This document shows positions 5,050 to 60,029 of a stretch of DNA of 64,000 nt, one piece after another. A model generated the notes under the pieces. It was not told the DNA's origin and did no database searches. It saw only the letters and a program-made list of their open reading frames with translations. How positions within the stretch are numbered: the first letter of the stretch is position 1; every line of letters begins with the position of its first letter. The DNA comes from Clostridia bacterium (GTDB taxonomy: Bacteria; Bacillota; DSM-521; Neomoorellales; SLTJ01). Both the position numbers and the translations under genes were made by a program. Where the stretch lies: assembly GCA_024653205.1 (NCBI GenBank), contig JANLFO010000005.1:65284-129283 (forward strand), given 5' to 3'.

Positions 5050-6177
5050 GTGACTGCAGGAAAGCCGAGGAGGCTTTTTCCGGGAAGCAACACCGCGCGC
5101 GGGTTTCATTCTTTCTTCGACTACCTGGCCGGGCCCGGGGTGGACTGGCGGTTCATACTCAAGGGCGGCCCCGGGGTGGGCAAGTCCACCTTCATGGGCC
5201 GCATAGCCGAAACCCTACTGGAGAAAGGGTACGGGGTAGAGTTCTTCCACTGCTCCTCAGACCCCGACTCCCTCGATGGGGTGAGCATACCCGCGCTGGG
5301 TGTGGCCTTTCTGGACGGCACCGCCCCGCACGTGGTGGACCCTACGGCGCCGGGCGCGGCGGGGGAAATAATCAACCTGGGCGCGTACTGGGACGGGGCG
5401 CGGCTCCGGGAGAAAAGGCAGGAGATCCGAGAACTGAACGGCGAAATAGCGCGCCTGTTCCGCCTGGCCTACCGTTGTCTTGCCCACGCCCAACTTTACG
5501 TGCAGGAAATCGAAACCTACTATACCGACGCCGTCAAACCCGCCGCGCTCAGGCGGCTTCGGCAAGAGATGGGCAGTTTTCTGCTCGGCCAGGATCACGG
5601 TCAGGGTGAGGGAGCCGCCCGCCACCTCTTCGCCTCGGCCGTTACTCCCCGGGGCGTGGTAAACCGGCTGTCCGACGCCCTTGGAGAAGCAAGGCGGGTG
5701 GTGGTGATCAGGGGGTGCGGCAAGCACCTCGGGGCCTCCTTGATAGAAGGCATCTACCGGGAGGCGCTGGACCGCGGCTGCTACGTGGAAGCCTTCCACT
5801 GCGGCCTATTGCCGGAATATCTGGAGCACCTTTTCCTCCCGGAACTCGGAGCGGCGGTAGTGACCTCCAACCCCTACCATCCCTTCCCGGTCTCTGCCGG
5901 CTGCCGGGTGATTGACCTGGACCAAGAGCTGGAAGCTAGAATTCCGGCCGCCTACCAGAAGGATCTGGAAGCGGCCGCAGAAGGGCTGGAAGCGGCCATC
6001 CGCCGCGGCGTGGGCTTTATCGCCCGCACCAAAGAGATCCACGACGCCCTCGAGCAACTCTACGTTCCCGGCATGGACTTCGCCTCCATAGACGCCCTGC
6101 GGCAAGAGGTCACGGAGCGAATCCTCCGGACGGAAGCTTCGCGCTGCCGCAAAGAGCCGGCGAGGTCGGGTATCTGA
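5050..6177 (+). CDS. P-loop ATPase of the PRK06851 family (function unknown)
   Basis: FPGSNTARGFHSFFDY, Walker A GGPGVGKST and FHCSSDPDSLDG. Start set at the GTG 8 nt after AAGGAGG; the track ORF N-terminus (from 4582) overlaps nfeD antisense and looks non-coding. Confidence 0.7.
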   Translation: MTAGKPRRLFPGSNTARGFHSFFDYLAGPGVDWRFILKGGPGVGKSTFMGRIAETLLEKGYGVEFFHCSSDPDSLDGVSIPALGVAFLDGTAPHVVDPTAPGAAGEIINLGAYWDGARLREKRQEIRELNGEIARLFRLAYRCLAHAQLYVQEIETYYTDAVKPAALRRLRQEMGSFLLGQDHGQGEGAARHLFASAVTPRGVVNRLSDALGEARRVVVIRGCGKHLGASLIEGIYREALDRGCYVEAFHCGLLPEYLEHLFLPELGAAVVTSNPYHPFPVSAGCRVIDLDQELEARIPAAYQKDLEAAAEGLEAAIRRGVGFIARTKEIHDALEQLYVPGMDFASIDALRQEVTERILRTEASRCRKEPARSGI

Positions 6178-6412: not shown

Positions 6413-7777
6413 ATGGCGTCTGTCCAGGTAGCGGCGGTGGCAACCTTCCTGGTAGCTATCGCCCTGGTGGTGACCCGGGTTATCAACAGCGTGGTGGCCG
6501 CCCTCTTGGGTGTAGTAGCTATGGTACTCGCCGGTGTGATGAGCGATCTCCAGGCGTTCGGTTTCATAGACTGGAACGTTATCGCCATCCTGGTGAGCGT
6601 ATGGATCATCGCTACTTATTTCGGCAAAACGGGCATCCCTGAGTTTCTTGCGGCAAAGGTTCTGGCCTTTTCCCGGGGTAACGTGGCCGTGTTCGTCACC
6701 CTGCTGGGCACGCTCTCCGGTTTCATTTCCATGTTCGTCGATAACGTCGTAGTCGTGCTGATGATGGCCCCTGTGCTCTTCCACATCGCCCGGCAGTTCA
6801 AATTCAAGACCTTCGGTCCCCTGCTGTTCGTCGGCCTTTGCGCGAACTTCATGGGCACGGCCCTGCTCCTGGGCGACCTGCCGCCGCAGATGCTGCACAG
6901 CGTGAGCGGCATTGAGTTCGGCGGGTTCGTGTGGCACTCCGGCCGGCCTTCTTCGTTCATAATCCTCACCATTACCTATCTGATAGTCGTGGCGATCTTC
7001 TACCGCCGTTTCCGGCGTCAGTATGCCGGGCGGGCGGAAGCTGCCGCCACCGCGGACGTGGGAGCCCTGCCCGTATCGGAAAGCACGTCGGAGGAAACTG
7101 AATCCCAGCCCATGGACAAGCGGTTCGGCCTTCTGGTTTGCGGTGCCTTTGCCGGCACCATCGTGCTCATGAGCCTGCGCCATTTGACCGGGTATCGGCT
7201 CGGGTTCCTGGCCCTGGTGGGGGCGGTGGCCTTAATGCTGATGCTGGAAGTGTTGCGAAAGCTCTGGCATCTTAATGTTCCCAGCCTGGAGGAACTCCTG
7301 GCCGAGCTGCAGTGGGACGCCATCTTCTTTTACGCCGCCCTGTTTGCCCTGGTGGGCGGGCTGGAGCACGCGGGCATTATCAAAGCTATTGCCGACGCCC
7401 TCGTTCCCTACCTGCACCAGAGCCTCTTGCTGGGGACAACCCTGCTCTACTGGGTCACGGCCCCTATCGTGGGCATCGTCGAACACGATGCCTACATCCT
7501 TACCATGCTCTACGTGATTCGCGATCTGGCCGCCACCACCCAGCTAAACCCCTGGCCCCTTTACTGGGCCCTGCTGTGGGCGGGAACCCTGGGCAGCAAC
7601 CTCACCGTGGCCGGAGCCCCGGCGCTCTTCGTGGCCGTGAACATGGCCGAAAAGGAAGACGGGCGCAAGGTGGACTTTAAGGAGTTCCTCGGATGGAGCG
7701 GGCCCTTTGTGCTTTCATCCCTGGCCATTTGCTTTGTCCTGGCGGTGGTTGTCTGGGTTCTACCTTTCGCCAAGTAG
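6413..7777 (+). CDS. ArsB/NhaD-superfamily (citrate-transporter-like) permease
   Basis: About 12 predicted TM helices with two homologous halves separated by a polar loop. GGAGAGAGG Shine-Dalgarno sequence before the ATG. Confidence 0.75.
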   Translation: MASVQVAAVATFLVAIALVVTRVINSVVAALLGVVAMVLAGVMSDLQAFGFIDWNVIAILVSVWIIATYFGKTGIPEFLAAKVLAFSRGNVAVFVTLLGTLSGFISMFVDNVVVVLMMAPVLFHIARQFKFKTFGPLLFVGLCANFMGTALLLGDLPPQMLHSVSGIEFGGFVWHSGRPSSFIILTITYLIVVAIFYRRFRRQYAGRAEAAATADVGALPVSESTSEETESQPMDKRFGLLVCGAFAGTIVLMSLRHLTGYRLGFLALVGAVALMLMLEVLRKLWHLNVPSLEELLAELQWDAIFFYAALFALVGGLEHAGIIKAIADALVPYLHQSLLLGTTLLYWVTAPIVGIVEHDAYILTMLYVIRDLAATTQLNPWPLYWALLWAGTLGSNLTVAGAPALFVAVNMAEKEDGRKVDFKEFLGWSGPFVLSSLAICFVLAVVVWVLPFAK

Positions 7778-31527: not shown

Positions 31528-33102
31528 ATGATCACCCTGGACTTGCCGGAAAGGTACAATGCGGTCACCACCTTTGTGGACGGCCACGTGGAGGCCGGGC
31601 GTGCCGACCGGGTGGCCATACGCTACGGTGATGAGGAGATCACCTACGGCCGGGTATATTCCATGGTCAACCGCTGCGGAAATGTCCTCCTCTCCCTGGG
31701 AGTAGAGATGGAGAACCGCGTCCTGTTGCTCCTGCCCGACTCTCCCGAGCTGGTCTACGCTTTCTTCGGCGCCATGAAAATCGGGGCCGTGCCCGTGCCG
31801 GTGAACAATCGCCTCACCGCCCAGGACTACCTGTACATCCTCAACGACAGCCGGGCCAAGGTGCTGGTGCTCGCCGAGGCACTGCTCCCCGCCATAGAAT
31901 CCATCCGCCCGCAGCTCAAGTACCTCAAGCATGCCCTGGTGGTGGGCCCGGCCCCGCCGGGCTACCTCGGCTTCCACGAGCTTCTTTCCGCCGCCTCGCC
32001 GGACCTGGACCCCGCCGACACCCACCGCGACGACGTGGCCTTCTGGCTGTACAGTTCCGGCAGCACCGGGCTTCCCAAGGGAGTGGTACACCTTCACCAC
32101 GACTGGATCCACTGCTGCGAGTTCTACGCCAAAGGGGTTTTGGGAATTACGCCCGAGGACGTTTCCCTTTCGGTCTCGAAGTGCTTTCACGCGTACGGGC
32201 TGGGCAACGTGCTCATCTTTCCCTTCTACGTCGGCGGCTGCACCGTGCTCTACCCGGACGTACCCCGCCCCGAGCCCTTCCTGGCCGCCGCCGAGCGCAA
32301 CCGGGTCAGCCTCTTTTACGGGGTGCCGACCTTTTTCGCCCTGGCGCTGGCCATCCCGGACATAGAGAAGAAGTATCCCCTCCGCCACCTGAGGCTCTGC
32401 GTTTCCGCCGGCGAGCCCCTGCCCGCAGCGGTGTACACCCGCTGGAAAGAGCGCTTCGGGGTGGAAATCCTCGACGGAATCGGCAGCACGGAGGTTTTGC
32501 ACATCTATATTTCCTCCCGGCCGGGACGGGTAAAGCCCGGAAGCTGCGGCCAGCCGGTGGAAGGCTACGACGTGCGCATCCTGGACGACCGTGGGCGGGA
32601 ACTGGGCCTGGGCGAAACCGGGACCCTGTGGGTGCGGGGGGAGAGCGTTACCCCGTATTTCTGGAACAAGCACCAGAAGACCAAGGCGCAAATCGTTGGG
32701 GAGTGGTACAATACCGGCGACCGGTGGCACCGGGACGAAGAAGGTTACTTCTGGTATGCCGGAAGGTCGGACGATGCCTTCAAGTCCCGGGGAGAATGGG
32801 TGGAACCGGTGGAGATAGAGAACGTGCTCATCGAGCACGAGGCGGTGCTGGAAAGCGGAGTGGTGGGAGTGGAGGACAGGGACGGGCTGCTCAAACCCAT
32901 GGCCTTCGTGGTGCTGAAGCCGGGCTTCGCAGCCTCGGAAACCCTGGCGGATGAGCTCAGGGCCTTCGTGCGCTCCCGCCTGGCCGGTTATAAGGTTCCT
33001 ACCTGGATCCGGTTCGTTTCCGACCTGCCGAAAACCGCCACCGGGAAGATCCAGCGCTTCCGGCTGCGCGACGAGGCTGCGGCCGCGCGGGCGGAGGCTT
33101 AG
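31528..33102 (+). CDS. benzoate-CoA-ligase-family AMP-dependent aryl-CoA synthetase
   Basis: AMP-binding motif WLYSSGSTGLPKGVVH, YNTGDRW, and C-terminal PKTATGKIQRF. Confidence 0.85.
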   Translation: MITLDLPERYNAVTTFVDGHVEAGRADRVAIRYGDEEITYGRVYSMVNRCGNVLLSLGVEMENRVLLLLPDSPELVYAFFGAMKIGAVPVPVNNRLTAQDYLYILNDSRAKVLVLAEALLPAIESIRPQLKYLKHALVVGPAPPGYLGFHELLSAASPDLDPADTHRDDVAFWLYSSGSTGLPKGVVHLHHDWIHCCEFYAKGVLGITPEDVSLSVSKCFHAYGLGNVLIFPFYVGGCTVLYPDVPRPEPFLAAAERNRVSLFYGVPTFFALALAIPDIEKKYPLRHLRLCVSAGEPLPAAVYTRWKERFGVEILDGIGSTEVLHIYISSRPGRVKPGSCGQPVEGYDVRILDDRGRELGLGETGTLWVRGESVTPYFWNKHQKTKAQIVGEWYNTGDRWHRDEEGYFWYAGRSDDAFKSRGEWVEPVEIENVLIEHEAVLESGVVGVEDRDGLLKPMAFVVLKPGFAASETLADELRAFVRSRLAGYKVPTWIRFVSDLPKTATGKIQRFRLRDEAAAARAEA

Positions 33103-34781
33103 GCCAGCAGCCCGGCGCGCTCGCGCTCCCGCACCGCGCCGACGAAAGCCGGCACCAGCTGCGGGTCGTACAGGGTGCCGGCGCTGCGGATTATCTCCTG
33201 CAGGGCTTCGGAGGTGGTCAGGGCCCGGCGGTAGGGCCGGCTGCTGGTCATGGCGTCAAAGCTGTCCGCCAGCCTGATGATACGGGCCAGGAGGCTTATG
33301 CTCTCTCCCTGCAGCCCGTCCGGGTAGCCGGAACCGTCGTAGTTCTCGTGGTGAGAGCGCACCGCTTCCGCCGCCCGCCGGAAGGCGGGGAGAACTCCCA
33401 GCATCTCGCTGCCCCATACCGGGTGACGCTTCATGACCTCCCATTCCTCGTCGTCCAGCCGGCCGGGCTTGGTGAGGATCTCGTGCGGGACCTCCAGCTT
33501 GCCGATGTCGTGCAGGTAAGCGGCGTGGCGCAGGACGGTCTTGTCTTCCTCCGAAAGACCCAGCTTGTCCGCCAGCGCCAGGGTGTACACCACCACCCGC
33601 TCGGAGTGGCCGAAGGTGTAGCGGTCGCGCAGGTTTACCAGGGCCACGAAAGCCTGCAGGGCGCCGAAGGCGTCCTCCCGCCGTAGCGTGTCGAGCTGCC
33701 CCAGGATGGACTTGTAGAGGTAGGTCTTGCCCCGGCTGTACTTAACGCGGAAGAGATCGTCATCTGCCGCCTGGTAGAGGGCCCCGGCTTCGGCGGCATC
33801 GGTGGGATAAACAGCCAGGCCGTAGTTCACCGCCGGCCGCAGGACGAGGGCCTCGGGTTCCTGGCGGGCCAGGTACTCCTTGAGCACCTGTTCGGCCTGG
33901 AGACATAGGTCCTCGCCCACTTCCACCGCCTCCATCTTCGCCGTTTTCGGGAGCACCACGGCAAACCTGGCTCCACCTGACCGGGCGGCGTAAGCTCCGG
34001 CCGGTAACGCGCGCTTAACCACTTCCGCCATGAGGGTGAGCATCTCGTCGCCCCTCTGGAAACCCAGGCGGGCGTTGTAATGCCGGAACTGGTCGAGATC
34101 CAGAAGCAACAGGGCTACGGGACTTCCCAGGGGGCCGGCCTCCGCCAGGGAGCGGCCCAGGGCTTCCAGGAGGCGACGGTCGTTGAGCAGGCCGGTGAGA
34201 GGATCGCGGTCGGCCAGGGTGGCCAGCTCCGCCTGGGTCCGGCGCTCCACCCGGATGAGGCTGGCCACCAGCCAGGCCAGCAGCACGGTCACGCCGAGGA
34301 CTATGGCGTCCACCCGGAATACTTCGGGGGAGATGCCTCCCAGGGCCCGGTAGTCCACCCAGAAAACCAGGCTGCCGGCCAGGGCCGCCACCAGGGTTCC
34401 CCAAACCGGCCCCAGGACCACGCCGGAAACCACGGCGGGAACGATCAGCACCACCTTGGCGCCCTCGTAGCCGTGGCTGTGCCACAGCAGCGCCGCAGCG
34501 AGCGGAAGCACCACCACCAGCAACAGGATTTCGTCCACGCGCGGCGCTCCCAGGGAGGGAACCTGGATCAGGAGCTTCCGACCGACGTACAGGGCGGCCA
34601 CGGCTAGGAATGGCAAAAGACTAATGTAGCTGGAAACATAGCTTGGATAGTCTATGTTGCCACCGAGGCGAGTGCCATAGAGACTCCCCAGCATCCAGGC
34701 AAAGAACAGAAAACAAAAAGCATTGAAGATTACCAGGATGTCGGAAACCTCGCGGCCCCTTCTCTTTATCCAGTTGCCCAT
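33099..34781 (-). CDS. membrane sensor (about 6 TM) with a degenerate GGDEF and an intact HD-GYP c-di-GMP phosphodiesterase domain
   Basis: About 200 N-terminal hydrophobic residues. The GGDEF-fold A-site reads SGGARF. HD-GYP is intact (HDIGK...HHENYDGSGYPDGL). ATG preceded by GGAGGGGAGG. Confidence 0.85.
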   Translation of the reverse strand: MGNWIKRRGREVSDILVIFNAFCFLFFAWMLGSLYGTRLGGNIDYPSYVSSYISLLPFLAVAALYVGRKLLIQVPSLGAPRVDEILLLVVVLPLAAALLWHSHGYEGAKVVLIVPAVVSGVVLGPVWGTLVAALAGSLVFWVDYRALGGISPEVFRVDAIVLGVTVLLAWLVASLIRVERRTQAELATLADRDPLTGLLNDRRLLEALGRSLAEAGPLGSPVALLLLDLDQFRHYNARLGFQRGDEMLTLMAEVVKRALPAGAYAARSGGARFAVVLPKTAKMEAVEVGEDLCLQAEQVLKEYLARQEPEALVLRPAVNYGLAVYPTDAAEAGALYQAADDDLFRVKYSRGKTYLYKSILGQLDTLRREDAFGALQAFVALVNLRDRYTFGHSERVVVYTLALADKLGLSEEDKTVLRHAAYLHDIGKLEVPHEILTKPGRLDDEEWEVMKRHPVWGSEMLGVLPAFRRAAEAVRSHHENYDGSGYPDGLQGESISLLARIIRLADSFDAMTSSRPYRRALTTSEALQEIIRSAGTLYDPQLVPAFVGAVRERERAGLLA

Positions 34782-34809
34782 GGCTGGCCTCCCCTCCTGC
34801 CAGAGGCGT

Positions 34810-34842
34810 CTGGGCCCAGCCACCTCCTCGGTGGGGGCCCAG
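34810..34842 (-). promoter_or_regulatory. strong GC hairpin between agrD and the HD-GYP gene
   Basis: CUGGGCCCCCACC-GAGGA-GGUGG(CU)GGGCCCAG, about 13 bp, with no U-tract. It is a possible attenuator or mRNA-stability element. Confidence 0.4.
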
Positions 34843-34858
34843 ACGTTCCAGAAGCCCC

Positions 34859-34993
34859 TTATTCCTCCACCAGAGCGGAGGGCACTTCCGGCTGATACAA
34901 CAACATGACACACGCAGGTCTTACCCCGATCACCGCCACCAACGCCAGCATGGAGCCCACTACCGGCAGCAGGCGCGCCAACAGCCTCTTCAA
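34859..34993 (-). CDS. agrD: AgrD-type cyclic (thio)lactone autoinducer peptide precursor, 44 aa (not in the ORF track)
   Basis: Hand translation gives (TTG)KRLLARLLPVVGSMLALVAVIGVRPACVMLLYQPEVPSALVEE*. It has an amphipathic leader, a single Cys followed by 4 hydrophobic residues, and then the conserved YQPEVPxxL acidic recognition tail. Starts 8 nt after the agrB stop, with an AAGGGG Shine-Dalgarno sequence. Confidence 0.7.
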   Translation of the reverse strand: MKRLLARLLPVVGSMLALVAVIGVRPACVMLLYQPEVPSALVEE

Positions 34994-34998
34994 CCCTA

Positions 34999-35613
34999 TC
35001 ACCCCTTTCCCATGGCAAGATTATCCACGGCCGCGACCAGCCGGTGGCCGGCCCGGGTAAGGGTTAGGCCCTGCCACCAGAGGCCGCCGCCGAGGGCCAA
35101 GGCCAGATCCGCGCGCCACGGGAGCAGCGCCAGGGACGCGACGCCCAGCAGGACGAGCGCCGAGAGCGACAGCCGCCGCAGGCGGCGCCGCCTTTCCGCC
35201 GACCTTACGGGATGGGCGGGCGTATCCACGGGCGCCAGCGTGGCCACCACTACCGCCGTCCACACCAGAGCCGCGCCCACGATTGCCGCAATCGCCGCCG
35301 GGGGCAGATCCGCCAGTTCCCGGGCCGTCCGCCCCAGTCCCGCGGCCACGACCGCTCCCACCAGGCAGCAGACCAGGGGCGAGCGGCTGTGGGCGCCGCC
35401 GCTGAAGAGGCGCAGGGTGCTCGTCCCCACCGTGGCCACCAGAGCGCCCGCCAGGGCGCCGGCCAGCCAACCGGCCAGGGCCACCGCCGCCCAGTCTGCG
35501 GCCGTATACACCAGCACCTGGAGCCCGTAACGGATAACCTCTTCTTCCGCCGGGGACAGCTCCAGCCTCCGCGCCAGGCCGGAGGCCGCCGGCCGCACGA
35601 ACTCCAGCTTCAC
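34999..35613 (-). CDS. agrB: AgrB-family accessory gene regulator B (AgrD-processing membrane endopeptidase)
   Basis: Polytopic membrane protein with RLFSGGAHSRSPLVCCLVG. The His and Cys are 7 residues apart, as in the catalytic H77/C84 pair of S. aureus AgrB. GTG start. Confidence 0.85.
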   Translation of the reverse strand: MKLEFVRPAASGLARRLELSPAEEEVIRYGLQVLVYTAADWAAVALAGWLAGALAGALVATVGTSTLRLFSGGAHSRSPLVCCLVGAVVAAGLGRTARELADLPPAAIAAIVGAALVWTAVVVATLAPVDTPAHPVRSAERRRRLRRLSLSALVLLGVASLALLPWRADLALALGGGLWWQGLTLTRAGHRLVAAVDNLAMGKG

Positions 35614-36179
35614 GGCACCAACGTACCCCGCCTCCGGTTGTAAGCATTGACCGCCAGGGCCACGGCCAGGAGCACCGCCTCGTAGGGTGCGGCAAAGAGA
35701 GCCCGATAGAAGGGGTTGACAAATACTTCCTGATAAGTCATTTTGGTCACGCTCAATAGGGGTTTCAAATATAAGAACTCAGTCCCGATGGTGATGGCAA
35801 AGCAGAGTAGGACAGCGTAAAGGACTCGCGCCATCCGTGCCCTGGTAAAGGCCCAAGTGTATAGGGCCAACGAAACCACCAACACCACCGTATGCACTAC
35901 GGGCAACAGGCGCACCAGATTGGTGGCGGTCTGCAACAGGGCAATGTAGAAGGTCCGGGGCCTCAGCAGGCGATAGTTGAGGAAGCTGAGCACAACCAGG
36001 GTCATAACCAAACTTTCCGGAAAATCCTGCAGCGCCAGTGCGTAGAGCAAGCCTGGAAAGCGCTCTTCTACCAACTCCTGCACCTCCGCCCTGCCCGTCG
36101 GGCAACGGCACCGATACGGGCGCCTTCCTTCCGGTACATTCGACGGACAGGGCAGAATTTCCTCCTCCATCGCCGGCAT
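35610..36179 (-). CDS. polytopic membrane protein of unknown function, translationally coupled to agrB
   Basis: Cys-rich cytoplasmic N-terminus (CPSNVPEGRRPYRCRCP) and about 5 TM helices. Its TGA stop overlaps the agrB GTG start (GTGA). Only the 3' 570 nt of track ORF 35610..36761 is credible. Confidence 0.6.
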   Translation of the reverse strand: MPAMEEEILPCPSNVPEGRRPYRCRCPTGRAEVQELVEERFPGLLYALALQDFPESLVMTLVVLSFLNYRLLRPRTFYIALLQTATNLVRLLPVVHTVVLVVSLALYTWAFTRARMARVLYAVLLCFAITIGTEFLYLKPLLSVTKMTYQEVFVNPFYRALFAAPYEAVLLAVALAVNAYNRRRGTLVP

Positions 36180-53788: not shown

Positions 53789-54985
53789 CTACTGTTCGAA
53801 ACTGTCAACGACTTCGTCTCGCGGACCTGGTACCATCAGGTCAACGAAGTCTTTATACAGAACCCGGCTATTCCTCGTAACGCCATCCAGCACCGCGAGT
53901 ATGCGGGGCACTGCGTAGCCATCGCCGTAAGGCGAAAGACAATCAGAAAGCTGCTGGCGGTAATGCTCGTCGCACAAGAGCCGACTAACAGTGGCAGTTA
54001 TCGAGGTGACGTCGAAGGGGACGTACACTACGTTGGTGGAATGTTCGCGCTCGGACTGCCTATTCCCGATGTTTACCACGGGAAGTCTCAAGTAGGGAGC
54101 CTCGTGAATACCGGCACTCGAATTGCCAATCAGGCACGTAGCATGCCTAAGCAGATTAACGAATACGTTCCGGGGCAGATTAGGAAAGGGGTGAATAAAA
54201 TCGTTGGCTTGAGCATATAAGTCTATTGTCTCGATCATCTTTCTAGTACCCGCATCCGAATTCGGGTAAACAACCACTGTGGGTACCCGCAGCGAACATA
54301 TTGCCCGCAGAGTGATATCCATCTGGTTTGCCGCTTGCTGGTATTCTGAAGATATGGGGTGTTGAATTAGCACAACGAACCTGTCACCCAGGTGAATACC
54401 AAGCGCGTCCTCTATCTCCTGCAAACTGAGCCACGGCTCCTTACGAATCCCGTCAAGACCAGGGGAACCAGTCACATGCACTCGCCATGGCTCCTCGCCC
54501 ATCTGAATAATCCTCTGGCCGCTGCGTTTGGTAAACGCGCAGTGTATATGAGCGAGCTTTGTAACCGAATGCCTAACATGATCGTCTACATTACCGAGTA
54601 CCCGATCCCCTCCGCCCAAGTGCACAACCGGGACATTCATGTAATTGCCCACTATCGCTGTCGCCAGCGCCTCCTCGCGGTCGCCCAAGGTGAGGAGGAT
54701 ATCGGGGTCGTGCCGTCTGACCGCCTCTGCGAGTTCCATTACGATAAGGCCCAGCCCTTTAACCCTGCCAAGCGGCTCGTCGTTATCAAACAAGGAGAGT
54801 ATCCTCTCCACCGAGCCGAACCGCCGTTCAATAATCTCAACAGTATATCCATAACGGTGACTTAAGTGCGCGCCAGTTGCCACAATCCATAGGTCAAAGC
54901 GTGCGCTTGCCACTAGTTCGTCCAGCAACGGCTCCATTAGAAAATACTCAGAGCGGATTCCTGTTACCGCCAGGACCCTCTGCAC
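53789..54985 (-). CDS. neuC: UDP/GDP-N-acetylglucosamine 2-epimerase (hydrolysing), NeuC/LegG family
   Basis: VLAVTGIRSEY, LGDREEALATA, VVHLGGGD and GNSSAGIHEAP. Confidence 0.85.
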   Translation of the reverse strand: MQRVLAVTGIRSEYFLMEPLLDELVASARFDLWIVATGAHLSHRYGYTVEIIERRFGSVERILSLFDNDEPLGRVKGLGLIVMELAEAVRRHDPDILLTLGDREEALATAIVGNYMNVPVVHLGGGDRVLGNVDDHVRHSVTKLAHIHCAFTKRSGQRIIQMGEEPWRVHVTGSPGLDGIRKEPWLSLQEIEDALGIHLGDRFVVLIQHPISSEYQQAANQMDITLRAICSLRVPTVVVYPNSDAGTRKMIETIDLYAQANDFIHPFPNLPRNVFVNLLRHATCLIGNSSAGIHEAPYLRLPVVNIGNRQSEREHSTNVVYVPFDVTSITATVSRLLCDEHYRQQLSDCLSPYGDGYAVPRILAVLDGVTRNSRVLYKDFVDLMVPGPRDEVVDSFEQ

Positions 54986-55700
54986 CGAGCTCACCCCCAA
55001 CACGGCCCAGATGCTGCATGGCAAGAATTCGGGGTGCCAATACCCTTAGCTCCTCTACCGAATGGGCGTCCGACCCGTACGTATAGCGGTGACACATTCT
55101 GGGCACAATTGTAGCATAGTCAAAGCCCGGAAAATGCTTGGGATTAACGTTAATTTCCAAGGCAAAACCGTAGGAGTTAGCGATCGCAACGAGATCCGCG
55201 ATTTCCTCCTGACCCGGTTCCAAGCCCCACCTCTTCCACATACTGAAGGGATGGCCCAGCACCAGCTCGAGGTCCGGATTTAAGGTCCTTAAGAGCGGTA
55301 CCTCCTTCTCGCCAAAACGCTGCACGGTCCTAAACCAGATCGACTTAAACGCTTGTTTCCCGTGGACCATAAAGGCCTCTTGAGGAAACGAGTGAAAGGA
55401 CACAATGAGGCAGTTCAGCAGAGGTATCCACTCCGGCTTGCAGTCCACTACGCCTTCGGCGTTAAGAAATTTGACCTCAAGCCCAGTCTTAATAGCAACA
55501 CACTTACAGCTGGCTCGCAACGTCTCTAGCGCAAAGCAATATCTTTCCACATAAGTGCTGTTTCTACGCGCATGGTCGGCAAAAACTATGAAGCGCAACC
55601 CGAATTCTTCGGCTGCTCGCGCCATCTCAACCGGAGTACTCGCACCATCCGAATACATAGTGTGAAGGTGGCTATCGCCCGTTCCCACCGTTGTTTTCAT
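54948..55700 (-). CDS. PHP-family (histidinol-phosphatase-like) phosphoesterase
   Basis: GDSHLHTMYSDG and FADHA motifs, plus C-terminal YGSDAH. Confidence 0.7.
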   Translation of the reverse strand: MKTTVGTGDSHLHTMYSDGASTPVEMARAAEEFGLRFIVFADHARRNSTYVERYCFALETLRASCKCVAIKTGLEVKFLNAEGVVDCKPEWIPLLNCLIVSFHSFPQEAFMVHGKQAFKSIWFRTVQRFGEKEVPLLRTLNPDLELVLGHPFSMWKRWGLEPGQEEIADLVAIANSYGFALEINVNPKHFPGFDYATIVPRMCHRYTYGSDAHSVEELRVLAPRILAMQHLGRVGGELGAEGPGGNRNPL

Positions 55701-56733
55701 CCTGATAAAGCTCCCGGAAGAATCGGCCGCATGGTACATCCCACCGTTCCGGCCTCTGTGTCACTTCGCCCAAATAAATAAGGTTAAGGGCTTCCTCGAA
55801 CATGTTAACTCCGCTCGCAAGATCCATTGCAAGACCCGCCGGTACCCTCGGATTCACCTCCAGCAGCTTCGGTAGCCCATACAGATCCTCCTTAAATTGC
55901 AGATTAGCAATGTACGACAGGTGAAAAGCACCGACGATCTTCCGCGTGCAATCGACTAGCTCGTCGTGCCTGACTACCTTGGTGTACGCACACTTGCCAT
56001 CAACAACCGTGAGACGCTGACGCGGCACTACAATCTTAACCTCCCCTCGGTCAGCCAGGACATCAACACTATACTCTTCCCCAGGGAGGTACTCCATCAG
56101 AAATCCCTGTCTAGATCCGTCGTCTATTAGATCTCGCAGCCACTCCAGCCTAAGGGCACCGGGGCCTCTCGAGTTCAGAAAAACGTCAGGGTGGGCGGAG
56201 ACTATGATTAATCCCCGCCCGCCTTGAGAGTACCTTGGCTTGAATACAACATCGCGCTCCGGATAGCCAAGTGCTTCCGCAGCCTGGCGCAAGCCTTCCC
56301 TACCGACAAACGCCTTGTAGGTGGGGATGAAGGAGGACATGCCTTTAATCTTCATCAAGGTATCGTATGTGGCCACTTTGTCAATCGCGATCGAAAGAAG
56401 TTCGGCGTTGTCGGAAACGGCTACCTTTATCCCTGAGGCAGCAAACGAGGCTGCGGCTCGGCTCAAGGGAACCACCTCAGTGGAGCTACAAGGAAAGACG
56501 ACATCCACGCGTTCCTGCAAGCACAGTAATAACAGCTGAGCAATGAACGCGGGATCCTCTCCTCGGGGCAGCAGGTGCACCCGCCTGCGTAGAAACTGGT
56601 TGTAGTTGAAATCGGTGCTTACATCCGCGGGGATCACGTCGGCGCTATATGACTTCATACGTGCCAGCAGGTTGTAATGGGAGTACCCGGCCAAGCCGCC
56701 TGTAGCCGTCAGTAGAACTCTAACCCTGCGCAC
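55672..56733 (-). CDS. ATP-grasp domain ligase
   Basis: VVFKPRYSQGGRGL, LMEYLPGEEYSVDV and LLEVNPR are ATP-grasp fold hallmarks. Confidence 0.8.
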   Translation of the reverse strand: MRRVRVLLTATGGLAGYSHYNLLARMKSYSADVIPADVSTDFNYNQFLRRRVHLLPRGEDPAFIAQLLLLCLQERVDVVFPCSSTEVVPLSRAAASFAASGIKVAVSDNAELLSIAIDKVATYDTLMKIKGMSSFIPTYKAFVGREGLRQAAEALGYPERDVVFKPRYSQGGRGLIIVSAHPDVFLNSRGPGALRLEWLRDLIDDGSRQGFLMEYLPGEEYSVDVLADRGEVKIVVPRQRLTVVDGKCAYTKVVRHDELVDCTRKIVGAFHLSYIANLQFKEDLYGLPKLLEVNPRVPAGLAMDLASGVNMFEEALNLIYLGEVTQRPERWDVPCGRFFRELYQDENNGGNGR

Positions 56734-56804
56734 CCGGAGCGCCTCCTCTTACGGCATGTTCAATGAGGGCTGATCGTACCGAGCACCAGCGTGTTCGGCG
56801 GGCT

Positions 56805-58295
56805 TCAAAACTTGAGCGTTGCAAATAAGCAGTCGTCGTGCTGGGCAAGCACCCACTCGCGCTGGCCCGCCAATCTCCGAAGCGATTGCGACAATGCGGC
56901 ACCTTGCCAGTGGCTCACCCAGCCTGGCAACCCGACGGCGTTTCCCAGCTCTACAGTGAGACTTGCGTTAGTAAAACGTTGATTAATGATCGTTCGAAGC
57001 GACGTTTCCGTGTAAAGGTAAAGGTGATACGGCATCCCCGCATAAGATAGCCCAAAAGTCCGCGTGAGTGCCGAACCGGCATTAGGCGTACTGAGGTACA
57101 ATCTCCCGTTCCTACGCAACAACCTCTTCGCGGCAGCAATATAGCTCATAAATGTGGAAAAGGGTAGGTGTTCGATAACCTGCATCATGGCTATGACATC
57201 CCAGCGGGCAGAATGCGGCAACGCACCCAAGTCGCCTACGTGAACAAAAGTTGCCCCATTAGCCCGTGCAAGTTCAGCTGCCGAAGAGTTGATCTCGCAG
57301 AGGCCGTACCGCCAGCCGGAAGGTATGAACGCTCGCAATTCTCCGGTCCCTCCGCCAACGTCCAACAAGGTCCCACTACGCTCGGTAAGGCTATCAACCA
57401 ACTCTTGCCAATCCCAGCGATTGACAAGGTTGCTTCTGTTCCCACGATAGAGGGCATAGTCAACATTGTAGAGAGCGGCGATTGAGCTTTCTTCTGGCCG
57501 AGGATTGAGGTGTACCAGCCCACAATGCGGACACACCCAGTAGTACGGTACATCCTGAGGGACAAAGGAATTCATGGCTAGCGTGTCCGAACAAGGGCCC
57601 GGTTCTAAGGCCTGCCCGCAGTTATCGCAACGCTCCACAAACACGACTTCGAGCGGCAGTCCAAAATACAATGCCTGATATCGGTTAGACCTTAAGAAAG
57701 TCCCTAGCTCTTCCGGGCCAATAGAAAAAACGTTTTCCCGTAGCGTCTCTACCAACCACGCGAAGCACCTCACCTTTTCGACGTCCGATACCTCCGCTCC
57801 GAAGCGCCACCGGTCCAGCTGATCCAATTCAACTTGTCTGCGCTCTCCGTGCTGACTGGTTAAGACGCGATAAGGCGCCATGCCAGGTATAAAGCCGCTT
57901 AGAACTACTTCGCTAGTAACGGAAGAAGAGAGTTCCGCCACCAGACGCTGAAGGAGTACCCGATCGACCAATGGGTGCTCTACCCTGTGAAACAAGGCAG
58001 CCTGATGTGGCGCCAGTTGCCGGGCAATTGTTCTTTCGCGCTCCTCGGTATCGGGTGGCCCTTTCTGCACGTGTATCCCGTACTTTGCCACCAACTCGCT
58101 TATGCGCCGATCGTGATAGTCGTAAGGGAGGGACACTATAACCTGCGCCTGCGGCAAGCGCGCCTCAAGAAGCCTCCGGATCAAGATTTCAACTTGGGCA
58201 CCCACTCGGTATTGGTTCCAGAAAGGCGTAGTTATACCACGCCAGTTGGGCTCATCTGGATTTGCGATGATAAACAGCTTATACTCGCTCACCAT
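56805..58295 (-). CDS. fusion protein: cytidylyltransferase/SpsF-like N-domain, Zn-ribbon and class I SAM methyltransferase
   Basis: CDNCG...CPHCG zinc ribbon, then LLDVGGGTGE (SAM motif I) and VIAMMQVIEHL. Confidence 0.7.
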   Translation of the reverse strand: MVSEYKLFIIANPDEPNWRGITTPFWNQYRVGAQVEILIRRLLEARLPQAQVIVSLPYDYHDRRISELVAKYGIHVQKGPPDTEERERTIARQLAPHQAALFHRVEHPLVDRVLLQRLVAELSSSVTSEVVLSGFIPGMAPYRVLTSQHGERRQVELDQLDRWRFGAEVSDVEKVRCFAWLVETLRENVFSIGPEELGTFLRSNRYQALYFGLPLEVVFVERCDNCGQALEPGPCSDTLAMNSFVPQDVPYYWVCPHCGLVHLNPRPEESSIAALYNVDYALYRGNRSNLVNRWDWQELVDSLTERSGTLLDVGGGTGELRAFIPSGWRYGLCEINSSAAELARANGATFVHVGDLGALPHSARWDVIAMMQVIEHLPFSTFMSYIAAAKRLLRRNGRLYLSTPNAGSALTRTFGLSYAGMPYHLYLYTETSLRTIINQRFTNASLTVELGNAVGLPGWVSHWQGAALSQSLRRLAGQREWVLAQHDDCLFATLKF

Positions 58296-58332
58296 ACCAG
58301 GAGGCGACTCCTATCGCGCACAGACCTCCTAA

Positions 58333-58995
58333 TTACCTGATCACCCGCCGTACCTGCTGGAAGGCCTCAGCATAGGCCATGTTAACCGAAGAACCCCGAT
58401 AGGCCGCCAAACTTTTCACGACCTGCAGACTACGCGGGTGAGGAAACTCCTTCACCTCGGGGCCAAAGAGGCTCAAGATACGAAGCTTAGGCTCCAGGAC
58501 TTCTTCTATGTTAACGTAGACATCCGGTTCAAACCTTGCCGCCTTATTCGGGAAGGCCCAATTGGTGCTGGAGGGAACCTCATATAGAAGTACTTCCTTG
58601 ACGGAAGGCACGTAAGCCGGTTTTAAGGCAACCATAGCGCACCGGTGAACGATATCATGGTCCGTGTTAACATCGGCATCGCTAACGCAGTAAACGATAT
58701 CAGGTTCGGACTTCAGGATTATGGCCACTAGGTCGTCCACAATCCCGCGCATAGGAACCATGTCCAGACTGCCGGCCGGATAGTCAAGCAGGAAACGGTC
58801 AGCGAAGCCATACGCCTTACTGACTTGCTCAACCGTAGCCATTCTTGTACTTCGAAAATGCTGGGACGAATCCTCAAGGGCAAGTGTGACGATGCACCAG
58901 TAGACCTTGTCACCGGCAGCAATATGTCTCAACAGCGTCCCACCTGCTCCCAGCGTCTCATCGTCAGGATGAGGGGCGATAACCAGCACCTTCAA
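58333..58995 (-). CDS. PIG-L/LmbE-family deacetylase
   Basis: VLVIAPHPDDETLGAGG and NTDHD motifs. TTG start after GGTGAGGTGAG. Confidence 0.8.
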   Translation of the reverse strand: MKVLVIAPHPDDETLGAGGTLLRHIAAGDKVYWCIVTLALEDSSQHFRSTRMATVEQVSKAYGFADRFLLDYPAGSLDMVPMRGIVDDLVAIILKSEPDIVYCVSDADVNTDHDIVHRCAMVALKPAYVPSVKEVLLYEVPSSTNWAFPNKAARFEPDVYVNIEEVLEPKLRILSLFGPEVKEFPHPRSLQVVKSLAAYRGSSVNMAYAEAFQQVRRVIR

Positions 58996-59005
58996 CCGTC
59001 TCACC

Positions 59006-59356
59006 TCACCGCCGACCAGCGCGAAGGCACGGCCGCGCCGGGTTTCCCCGCACAACCACCCCTGGTGGCACGTCTTTCGTAACCACCGCACCTGCGCTGA
59101 CAAACGCCTGGGCCCCTATCTTGATGCTCTGAACTATACATGCACCCACGCCAATAAAGGCGCCCTCGCCCACTACCACGCCGCCGCAGATTATGGCCCC
59201 GGGCCCGATCTGGGCAGAATCCCCGATCCGGCAGTCGTGCTCGATAATCGCCCCGGTATTGACTATCACGTTCTCACCGACGACGGCGCCGGCGTTGATG
59301 GCGGCGCCCGCCATGACCACCGTACCCCTTCCTCGGGCTGAGCAGAATGACACCAA
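59006..59356 (-). pseudogene. N-terminally truncated left-handed beta-helix acetyltransferase (paralog fragment of the NeuD-family gene upstream)
   Basis: Contains only hexapeptide repeats and the tail AVVTKDVPPGVVVRGNPAR, which is nearly identical in pattern to the tail of 59397..60029. It lacks the Rossmann-like NeuD N-domain. Confidence 0.45.
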
Positions 59357-59396
59357 ATGTGGGAAACCCGGATATTCTCTATTGAGCTCTCTGCAC

Positions 59397-60029
59397 TCAC
59401 CGAACCACCCTTGCTGGGACGCCGACTACCACGGCACCTGGGGGAACGTCCTTAGTTACGACAGCACCTGCACCAACGATAGCCCTGCGCCCGATGCTAA
59501 CGCCAGGTAACGTCACCGCGCCGGTGCCGATTTGAGCCAAGTCACCCACGGTAGTGCCACCTGATAAGTGTACACCTGGAGCAATAGTACAGAAGTCGCC
59601 GATTGTTACGTCGTGCCCAATGGTGCAGCATAGGTTAATTATCGTATGTGAGCCTATTCTTACGCGAGATGTCACCTTAGTACCACTGCACACGATGGAA
59701 CCATTACCCACGTGTACGCTGCTAGCGATGAACACGTCAGGGTGAATTAACGTTGAAAAGCGTATTCCGACTGCACAAACTTCCCCTACTACGCGTTCCC
59801 GCACGCTCGGATCACCGATAGCGCATACTGCGAAGACTCCTCCTGGGTCATGGTTACTCAGCCACCTATGGAGAGTACCAAGGATCATAAAACCCTCCAT
59901 GTACTCCCCTACGCGGCTGTTGTCCTTGTCTATGAAGCCTAGAATACGGCTCCCGTCCGGAAGACACTGCTGAGCCAAAATGGCTACCTCTCTCGCAAAC
60001 CCACCCGCGCCTATGATCAGGAATCTCAT
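59397..60029 (-). CDS. NeuD/PglD/LegH-family sugar N-acetyltransferase
   Basis: MRFLIIGAGGFAREV N-domain plus hexapeptide repeats. ATG after GGTGGGG. Confidence 0.85.
   Translation of the reverse strand: MRFLIIGAGGFAREVAILAQQCLPDGSRILGFIDKDNSRVGEYMEGFMILGTLHRWLSNHDPGGVFAVCAIGDPSVRERVVGEVCAVGIRFSTLIHPDVFIASSVHVGNGSIVCSGTKVTSRVRIGSHTIINLCCTIGHDVTIGDFCTIAPGVHLSGGTTVGDLAQIGTGAVTLPGVSIGRRAIVGAGAVVTKDVPPGAVVVGVPARVVR

Follow-up and report, generated by a model that had tools for sequence, protein, structure and literature searches.

Among the described systems closest to the locus treated here is the Agr-like locus of Clostridium perfringens, whose published operon reads CPE1563-CPE1562-agrB-agrD, with CPE1560 following, and whose upstream hypothetical gene is co-transcribed (PMC2706048). 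Its autoinducing peptide (AIP) has been published as the bare ring CLWFT (PMC12312760). In Staphylococcus aureus the agrBDCA locus includes the kinase AgrC (HPK10) and the regulator AgrA (LytTR); the orphan agrBD pairs, such as C. difficile agr1 and C. botulinum agrB1D1 and agrB2D2, have no cognate two-component system beside them, and the receptor of C. difficile AgrD1 has been called elusive (PMC10602386, PMC4885068). Here, we compare with these systems an open reading frame (ORF) of 44 codons at 34859-34993, minus strand, in a 64,000-nucleotide stretch of a Clostridia bacterium genome (contig JANLFO010000005.1 of assembly GCA_024653205.1, positions 65,284 to 129,283), the whole of which is called the window. 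With a probability of about 0.85, this ORF would be a real agrD in a conserved four-gene cassette, and the cassette the form that the C. perfringens-type Agr-like locus takes in Moorellales. The cassette consists of the gene of a 157-amino-acid (aa) membrane protein, here X156, followed by agrB, agrD and the gene of a 560-aa protein with six predicted transmembrane (TM) helices, a GGDEF domain and an HD-GYP domain; all its features lie on the minus strand.

The translation of 34859-34993 is LKRLLARLLPVVGSMLALVAVIGVRPACVMLLYQPEVPSALVEE, 44 codons and then a stop, with a TTG start codon (34993-34991) and a single Cys at codon 28 (34910-34912), exactly as a sequence-only reading of the window had claimed. 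In the predicted layout, the leader takes residues 1-27, the core runs from Cys28 to Leu32 and the follower is YQPEVPSALVEE, so that the end region reads C28-VMLL-Y33QPEVP38SALVEE, with the Cys four residues ahead of the predicted cleavage site and a Pro-containing acidic follower after it. The putative macrocycle CVMLL is encoded by TGT GTC ATG TTG TTG at 34898-34912 (codons 28-32). The agrD gene starts only 5 nucleotides (nt) after agrB, whose stop lies at 34999, and a purine-rich GGAAAGGGG at 35002-35010, 8 nt 5' of the TTG and within the 3' end of agrB, presumably acts as its Shine-Dalgarno sequence. The longest ORF in this frame opens with a GTG at 35002, three codons above the TTG and overlapping the TGA stop of agrB. 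This GTG is the less likely start: the TTG can be regarded as the homologous one because orthologues have an ATG at the aligned position (MKRLL...).

The peptide scores 35.2 bits (E 9.4e-9) against the NCBIfam profile TIGR04223 (quorum_AgrD, 'AgrD family cyclic lactone autoinducer peptide'), whose trusted cutoff is 19 bits, with residues 8-41 on profile positions 3-36 of 38. The sequence-only reading had called the precursor unannotated, which holds for the ORF track it was given and fails for the public records: the exact 44-aa peptide is in NCBI (MCR4419306.1, MDH7573145.1) under the name 'cyclic lactone autoinducer peptide', IMG gives it the same name, and the ORF is already part of the gene call for the contig that the window matches, JARYLW010000015 of GCA_029907445.1, which belongs to a 'Clostridia bacterium' metagenome-assembled genome. 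Orthologues from Neomoorella and Terrisporobacter are likewise named 'cyclic lactone autoinducer peptide' in public records. Judged by its sequence, the 44-aa peptide is an ordinary, already annotated member of the known AgrD family, and annotation pipelines already recognise it.

Taken by itself, an ORF of this size means little, because such ORFs are abundant in DNA of 65% G+C, the composition of the window, where those of at least 30 aa number 96 in 12 kilobases (kb). The TTG start codon also counts against reading the ORF as agrD, and both facts would suit a chance open frame in G+C-rich DNA that is no gene. What makes the ORF significant is the TIGR04223 match together with the AgrB gene directly upstream and the presence of the same ORF at every related locus examined. 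These loci were gathered from three independent starts, namely homologues of AgrB, a genome scan with X156, and homologues of the 560-aa downstream protein, and at the syntenic position 29 other loci have an AgrD ORF in the same frame, which is thus conserved, also in a low-G+C clostridial genome. Outside the ring, the ratio of nonsynonymous to synonymous differences per site (pN/pS) in agrD is about 0.03-0.3, that is, purifying selection, which indicates that the frame is constrained and probably translated. With the conservation, the family score above the trusted cutoff and the pN/pS values all against it, and an AgrB gene adjoining, the chance-ORF explanation is refuted and keeps a negligible probability.

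The surroundings of agrD are conserved as well. The order X156, agrB, agrD and 6TM-GGDEF-HD-GYP gene recurs in 26 other loci with differing flanking genes, and the hosts include Moorellales, Neomoorella, Thermacetogeniaceae, Syntrophaceticus, metagenome-assembled genomes of Syntrophomonadaceae and Peptococcaceae, Terrisporobacter (of the family of C. difficile, with the full four-gene cassette) and a C. perfringens-type locus. Counted from X156, the full cassette is found in 15 of 19 loci, with two others decaying and two cut by contig ends; counted from AgrB, in 3 of 3 close homologues; and counted from the downstream protein, in 5 of 5 homologues with a full TM domain. The agrB-agrD adjacency is the same in the other loci with an intact agrB. 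In one of the two decaying loci (L009, 6001-8469), X156 and agrD are kept, agrB is gone and the downstream gene is frameshifted; in the other (L024, 6001-9020), agrB is broken and the downstream protein is matched only from residue 63 on. Both exceptions look like decay of the cassette as a whole unit. A paralogue of the downstream protein with a truncated TM region has no agrBD, and a more distant AgrB (P0040, 31% identity) adjoins an AgrC-type kinase. In the window, the 6 kb on each flank of agrBD encode no kinase, and the gene after agrD encodes the GGDEF/HD-GYP protein, so that the canonical arrangement with an AgrC is not found here. A tblastn search of the window for a LytTR regulator, with the LytTR regulator of L026 and S. 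aureus AgrA as queries, gave none below E 0.6.

The comparison with C. perfringens was made with the AgrD sequence of that species as a query, which two long metagenome contigs encode at 100% identity. The C. perfringens-type locus found in this way (L032) consists of a 188-aa ORF, an X156 homologue (60 bits, E 7e-20 with the A6 profile hidden Markov model), agrB, a 44-aa agrD, and a gene for a 563-aa sensor-GGEEF-HD-GYP protein whose sensor module scores 66 bits (E 1e-21) with profile A3. Since this order matches both the published operon and the window genes, the locus in the window belongs to the same C. perfringens-type Agr-like kind, as a distant member. By position only, the X156 homologue would be CPE1562 and the downstream enzyme CPE1560. 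The two AgrDs are collinear: Cys28 and Pro38 coincide, and in both the Cys is followed by four ring residues and the motif [YH]QPE[VE]P. Neither locus has an adjacent agrC or agrA. They differ in that the proteins share only about 24-46% identity, the ring is CLWFT there (a string contained in the query AgrD) and CVMLL here, the GGEEF motif is intact there and GGARF here, and a CPE1563-like first gene is present there and absent here. With the orphan agrBD pairs, the locus shares the missing neighbouring two-component system and a follower of the HQPKVP/YQPEVP type. With S. aureus agrBDCA, it shares proteins of the AgrB and AgrD families, a ring of five residues anchored at a Cys, an acidic follower that contains Pro, hypervariability in the ring and a hotspot of divergence in AgrB; the positions of Cys28 and Pro38 also match those in S. 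aureus AgrD-I. By contrast, neither AgrC nor AgrA was found in the operon or near the cassette, which has in their stead an extra upstream membrane protein and a downstream enzyme of cyclic diguanosine monophosphate (c-di-GMP) metabolism.

The partner expected to process the peptide is encoded directly upstream: agrB (34999-35613) specifies a 204-aa membrane peptidase/cyclase that matches PF04647 with 97.8 bits (E 6e-28). Its homologues are named accessory gene regulator B, with the closest relatives in Moorellales, and its conserved motif GGAH75SRSPLVC82, present in 18 of 19 orthologues scanned, contains the catalytic pair His75-x6-Cys82, which corresponds to H77 and C84 of S. aureus. On the side of the substrate, the AgrDs follow the consensus MKRLLYRLLPxxFSxLAxAAxIGVKP[TA]-C-xxxx-[YH]QPEVPxxLRK, and mean pairwise identity is 52% in the leader and 75% in the follower but 32% in the ring (Cys plus four). 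The Cys is invariant, the four residues after it are nearly random between loci, and the Pro-containing recognition tail [YH]-[QE]-P-E-V-P is conserved behind them. The AgrD-type layout drawn in the sequence-only reading, its Pro-containing tail included, is thus borne out by the family profile score, the adjacent AgrB with its catalytic pair, the invariant Cys, the four variable residues and the conserved tail. As a separate observation, one AgrD (L019, about 7060-7180) has two adjacent Cys, QPCCLWLF.

The variability of the ring is also seen between near-identical cassettes. In close pairs, pN is 0.24-0.75 in the ring and 0.01-0.07 in the rest of agrD. Three Neomoorella cassettes with 96-99% protein identity have the rings NFFF, SVCF and VFFF, and here pN in the ring is 0.24-0.42 while the flanking pS is 0.07-0.17; the nucleotide differences within the trio concentrate in mid-agrB, the ring codons, the spacer between agrD and the downstream gene, and outside loop 1 of the downstream protein. 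By these measures, diversifying selection acts on the ring residues, as would suit a strain-specific signal, and a hypervariable ring in near-identical cassettes is what classically marks an Agr specificity determinant. Strains of N. humiferrea (Moorella/Neomoorella) carry either the NFFF or the SVCF form of AgrD (L004, 5640-5771, was compared), and the SVCF form is common to N. humiferrea strains and N. mulderi. This split looks like pherotypes within one species, or like exchange between species.

If the established AgrB/AgrD mechanism applies, the hydrophobic leader would bring AgrD to the membrane, where AgrB, through His75 and Cys82, would recognise the follower, cut after Leu32 and join the Leu32 carbonyl to the Cys28 thiol, thus closing the five-residue C-V-M-L-L macrocycle, after which the leader would be removed and the peptide released. 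The cleavage site and the ring size in this scheme are drawn from the alignment only, and two loci with one extra residue weigh against taking them as settled: from Cys to follower there are five residues in L015 (about 2600-2740; C-FGYPW-YQPEVP) and in L017 (about 7130-7270; C-FGGAL-YQPKVP), where the ring may be six-membered. The sequence-only reading had expected a thiolactone with an exocyclic tail, an expectation that is uncertain. If the leader were cut directly before the Cys, in the way seen for the clostridial AIPs studied to date, the thiolactone would rearrange to cyclo(CVMLL). In other words, the mature signal might be a tail-less ring that undergoes an S-to-N acyl shift to the homodetic cyclo(Cys-Val-Met-Leu-Leu) with a free thiol, and not a tailed thiolactone. 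We give this form an even chance. In its favour, the clostridial AIPs detected by Molloy et al. all lacked an N-terminal extension and were all lactams (PMC8251862), and the C. perfringens AIP is a bare ring whose precursor is collinear with the window AgrD. On the other hand, the leader cleavage site is not readable from the sequence, and the conserved K/R-P-[TA] before the Cys could equally be a retained tail.

The gene after agrD (33099-34781) encodes a 560-aa membrane signalling protein with matches to GGDEF (89 bits) and HD_5 (149 bits). In the GGDEF domain (33735-34214), the active-site motif reads GGARF (33970-33990, residues 268-273), so the window protein lacks the intact GG[DE]EF motif of diguanylate cyclases, and the domain is probably no cyclase in the window lineage. 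The GGARF and GGSRF forms are confined to the window clade of L001, L002, L006 and L003 (GGARF in L002 and L006 as in the window protein, GGSRF in L003), and the other orthologues compared (L004, L011, L025, L032) have GSDEF, GGDEF or GGEEF. In the HD-GYP domain (33156-33650; HD_5 over residues 378-542), the motifs GHSERV, HDIGK, HHENYDGSGYP and DSFDAMT are intact, and with them the metal ligands H..HD..HH..D and the GYP motif. All four motifs are present in every full-length orthologue aligned; the truncated copy in L009 is without the last two. Since GGDEF has decayed to GGARF and the HD-GYP motifs are intact, the window protein is most likely a phosphodiesterase only, and the distribution of the motif forms suggests a recent shift in the window clade from a possibly bifunctional enzyme.

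The N-terminal sensor module (34227-34781, residues 1-185) has six predicted TM helices, at residues 3-34, 55-72, 79-101, 108-123, 125-147 and 152-183 in an AlphaFold2 (AF2) model of moderate quality, with a predicted local distance difference test (pLDDT) score of 78.9 and a predicted template modelling score (pTM) of 0.68. Variability within the protein peaks in extracellular loop 1 (about residues 35-54), with an entropy of 2.83 bits at residues 41-50 and 0.9-1.9 bits elsewhere. A word-index search with the TM domain alone gave 4 matches, and the full-length protein and an exhaustive profile search were used instead; in the latter, the TM profile matched 189 cluster representatives among 1.84 billion proteins. 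The same module is found elsewhere fused to HisKA/HATPase_c kinases, PAS kinases, hybrid kinases and stand-alone GGDEF domains, and because it is fused to kinases it can be regarded as a true modular membrane sensor domain. It resembles 6TM_PilS (PF25323) and DUF4118 in being a six-helix N-terminal membrane module, and 11 of 53 proteins found with the sensor profile match 6TM_PilS and 9 of 53 DUF4118. The window protein differs in having no Pfam match in its N-terminal region even at E<=10, and some orthologues, such as L028, give weak matches to 6TM_PilS. An AgrC-like nature of the sensor was considered and found no support, as the kinases that share the TM module are of the HisKA/HATPase_c kind, with HATPase_c_5 in 3 of 53 proteins, and weakly.

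For the read-out of the peptide there are two candidates. The 560-aa protein might itself sense the cyclic peptide directly, as a one-component receptor, in which case the linked HD-GYP phosphodiesterase would convert the peptide level, and with it cell density, into a c-di-GMP level with no kinase/regulator pair in between; within this scheme, X156 would serve as a dedicated partner in maturing or sensing the peptide. The logic has precedents in the Rpf systems, since in Xanthomonas RpfC/RpfG (HD-GYP) and Burkholderia RpfR (PAS-GGDEF-EAL) a diffusible fatty-acid signal controls c-di-GMP breakdown, and RpfR is receptor and enzyme in one protein. The proposed read-out differs from them in that its signal is a peptide and not a fatty acid and in its sensor domain, and homology is limited to the catalytic domains. 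Sensing by the linked enzyme is an attractive hypothesis only, because the known receptor of the C. perfringens peptide is the unlinked kinase VirS of the VirS/VirR pair, and we hold it tentatively, with the odds leaning against it.

Alternatively, the peptide may be a real AIP for which an unlinked histidine kinase of the VirS/AgrC type is the only sensor, with the adjacent GGDEF-HD-GYP protein acting as a co-transcribed output or as an independent sensor of something else (membrane state, X156 or the AgrD leader), an explanation that comes close to an even bet without reaching it. Several observations speak for this alternative and weigh against a linked receptor. In C. perfringens, which has the same cassette, VirS binds the AgrD peptide (PMC7492741, PMC10602386). 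Sensor domains are 98% identical between two Neomoorella cassettes whose rings differ at 3 of 4 positions, and in a partial Mantel test the divergence of the ring and that of loop 1 were correlated no better than controls (r 0.13, p 0.05), with ring distances that saturate. For the sensor, Foldseek gave no match among PDB structures, and similarity to HPK10 kinases of the AgrC type could not be detected. Relatives of this domain match 6TM_PilS, and PilS senses a membrane protein, not a diffusible ligand. Against an unlinked kinase as the only reader, however, stand the enzyme gene that follows agrD in the 26 other loci, in several orders and with varied flanks, the apparent decay of the cassette as a unit in L009 and L024, the hypervariable loop 1, where divergence is concentrated as it is in AgrB and the ring, and the lack of any kinase or LytTR regulator over the ranges given above. 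The linked HD-GYP enzyme and an unlinked VirS-type kinase are, moreover, not mutually exclusive candidates. No discussion of a GGDEF/HD-GYP gene beside agrD was found in open-access full texts, although a 2008 survey of agr in Firmicutes may mention the neighbourhood.

The first gene of the cassette, X156 (35610-36083), encodes a multi-pass membrane protein, and 4 nt are common to its stop and the agrB start. The gene sits upstream of agrB in all cassettes. X156 has no match to a Pfam or NCBIfam family and is 'hypothetical' in all public annotations; no sequence relative was found in the PDB, hhalign shows no relation to the sensor domain, and a single-sequence AF2 model (pLDDT 55) is too poor for use. 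The gene occurs in tandem copies in some loci, two in L007 (6001-7105) and in L028 (1527-2699), three in L015 (273-1919), and one plus a fragment in L017 (5717-6465); agrB, agrD and the gene of the sensor protein are each present once in these four loci.

A gap of 77 nt separates agrD from the gene of the 560-aa protein and contains a G+C-rich hairpin with no U tract (34807-34845), and a 96-nt fold around it reaches -52 kcal/mol (z -2.7). Neither an intrinsic terminator nor a sigma-70 promoter consensus was found in the gap, and an Rfam scan of the window returned two tRNAs only and no riboswitch near the cassette. The hairpin may act in processing or attenuation and thereby set how strongly the peptide genes are expressed relative to the sensor gene. 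An equivalent spacer is present in L003 (5700-5880), and the spacer is the most diverged stretch between near-identical Neomoorella cassettes.

Some further observations concern the surroundings of the cassette. In several Neomoorella and Bacillota loci, one or two extra GGDEF genes lie directly upstream of it (L004, 2100-4451, with one CHASE4-PAS-GGDEF; L007, 4369-5700; L008, 4942-5373; L010 and L014, about 5340-5783; L023, 1301-2627), which suggests a local cluster of c-di-GMP signalling genes. A full cassette with the AgrD MKRLYFSALSALFSVLAFVATVSIKPACFTWFYQPEIPRALKK is also present in L034 (NZ_CP061968.1, 19309-27000), an unannotated 27-kb record of 55.6% G+C deposited as 'Klebsiella pneumoniae plasmid unnamed3', which is probably a contaminating Firmicute contig and not a Klebsiella plasmid. 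In the window itself, G+C is 0.53-0.56 at 54001-60000 and about 0.65 in the remainder, and the former part could be horizontally acquired.

Taken alone, the peptide gene adds a further AgrD to those known; its predicted ring is CVMLL and its host an uncultured thermophilic Moorellales-like bacterium. The conserved pairing of the Agr peptide genes with a c-di-GMP enzyme and X156 is more interesting than the peptide and merits follow-up, as it makes of the 'orphan' agrBD of the C. perfringens type a four-gene module that has been kept from Clostridium to Moorellales and always includes an uncharacterised membrane protein (X156) and a membrane c-di-GMP enzyme. If sensing by the linked enzyme were true, it would be a second, overlooked read-out of clostridial Agr signalling, given that both C. 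perfringens and a C. difficile relative have the same cassette, and might explain the 'missing receptor' of orphan agrBD loci. The cassette thus points to two concrete genes in the tractable C. perfringens, CPE1562 and CPE1560, both assigned by their position.

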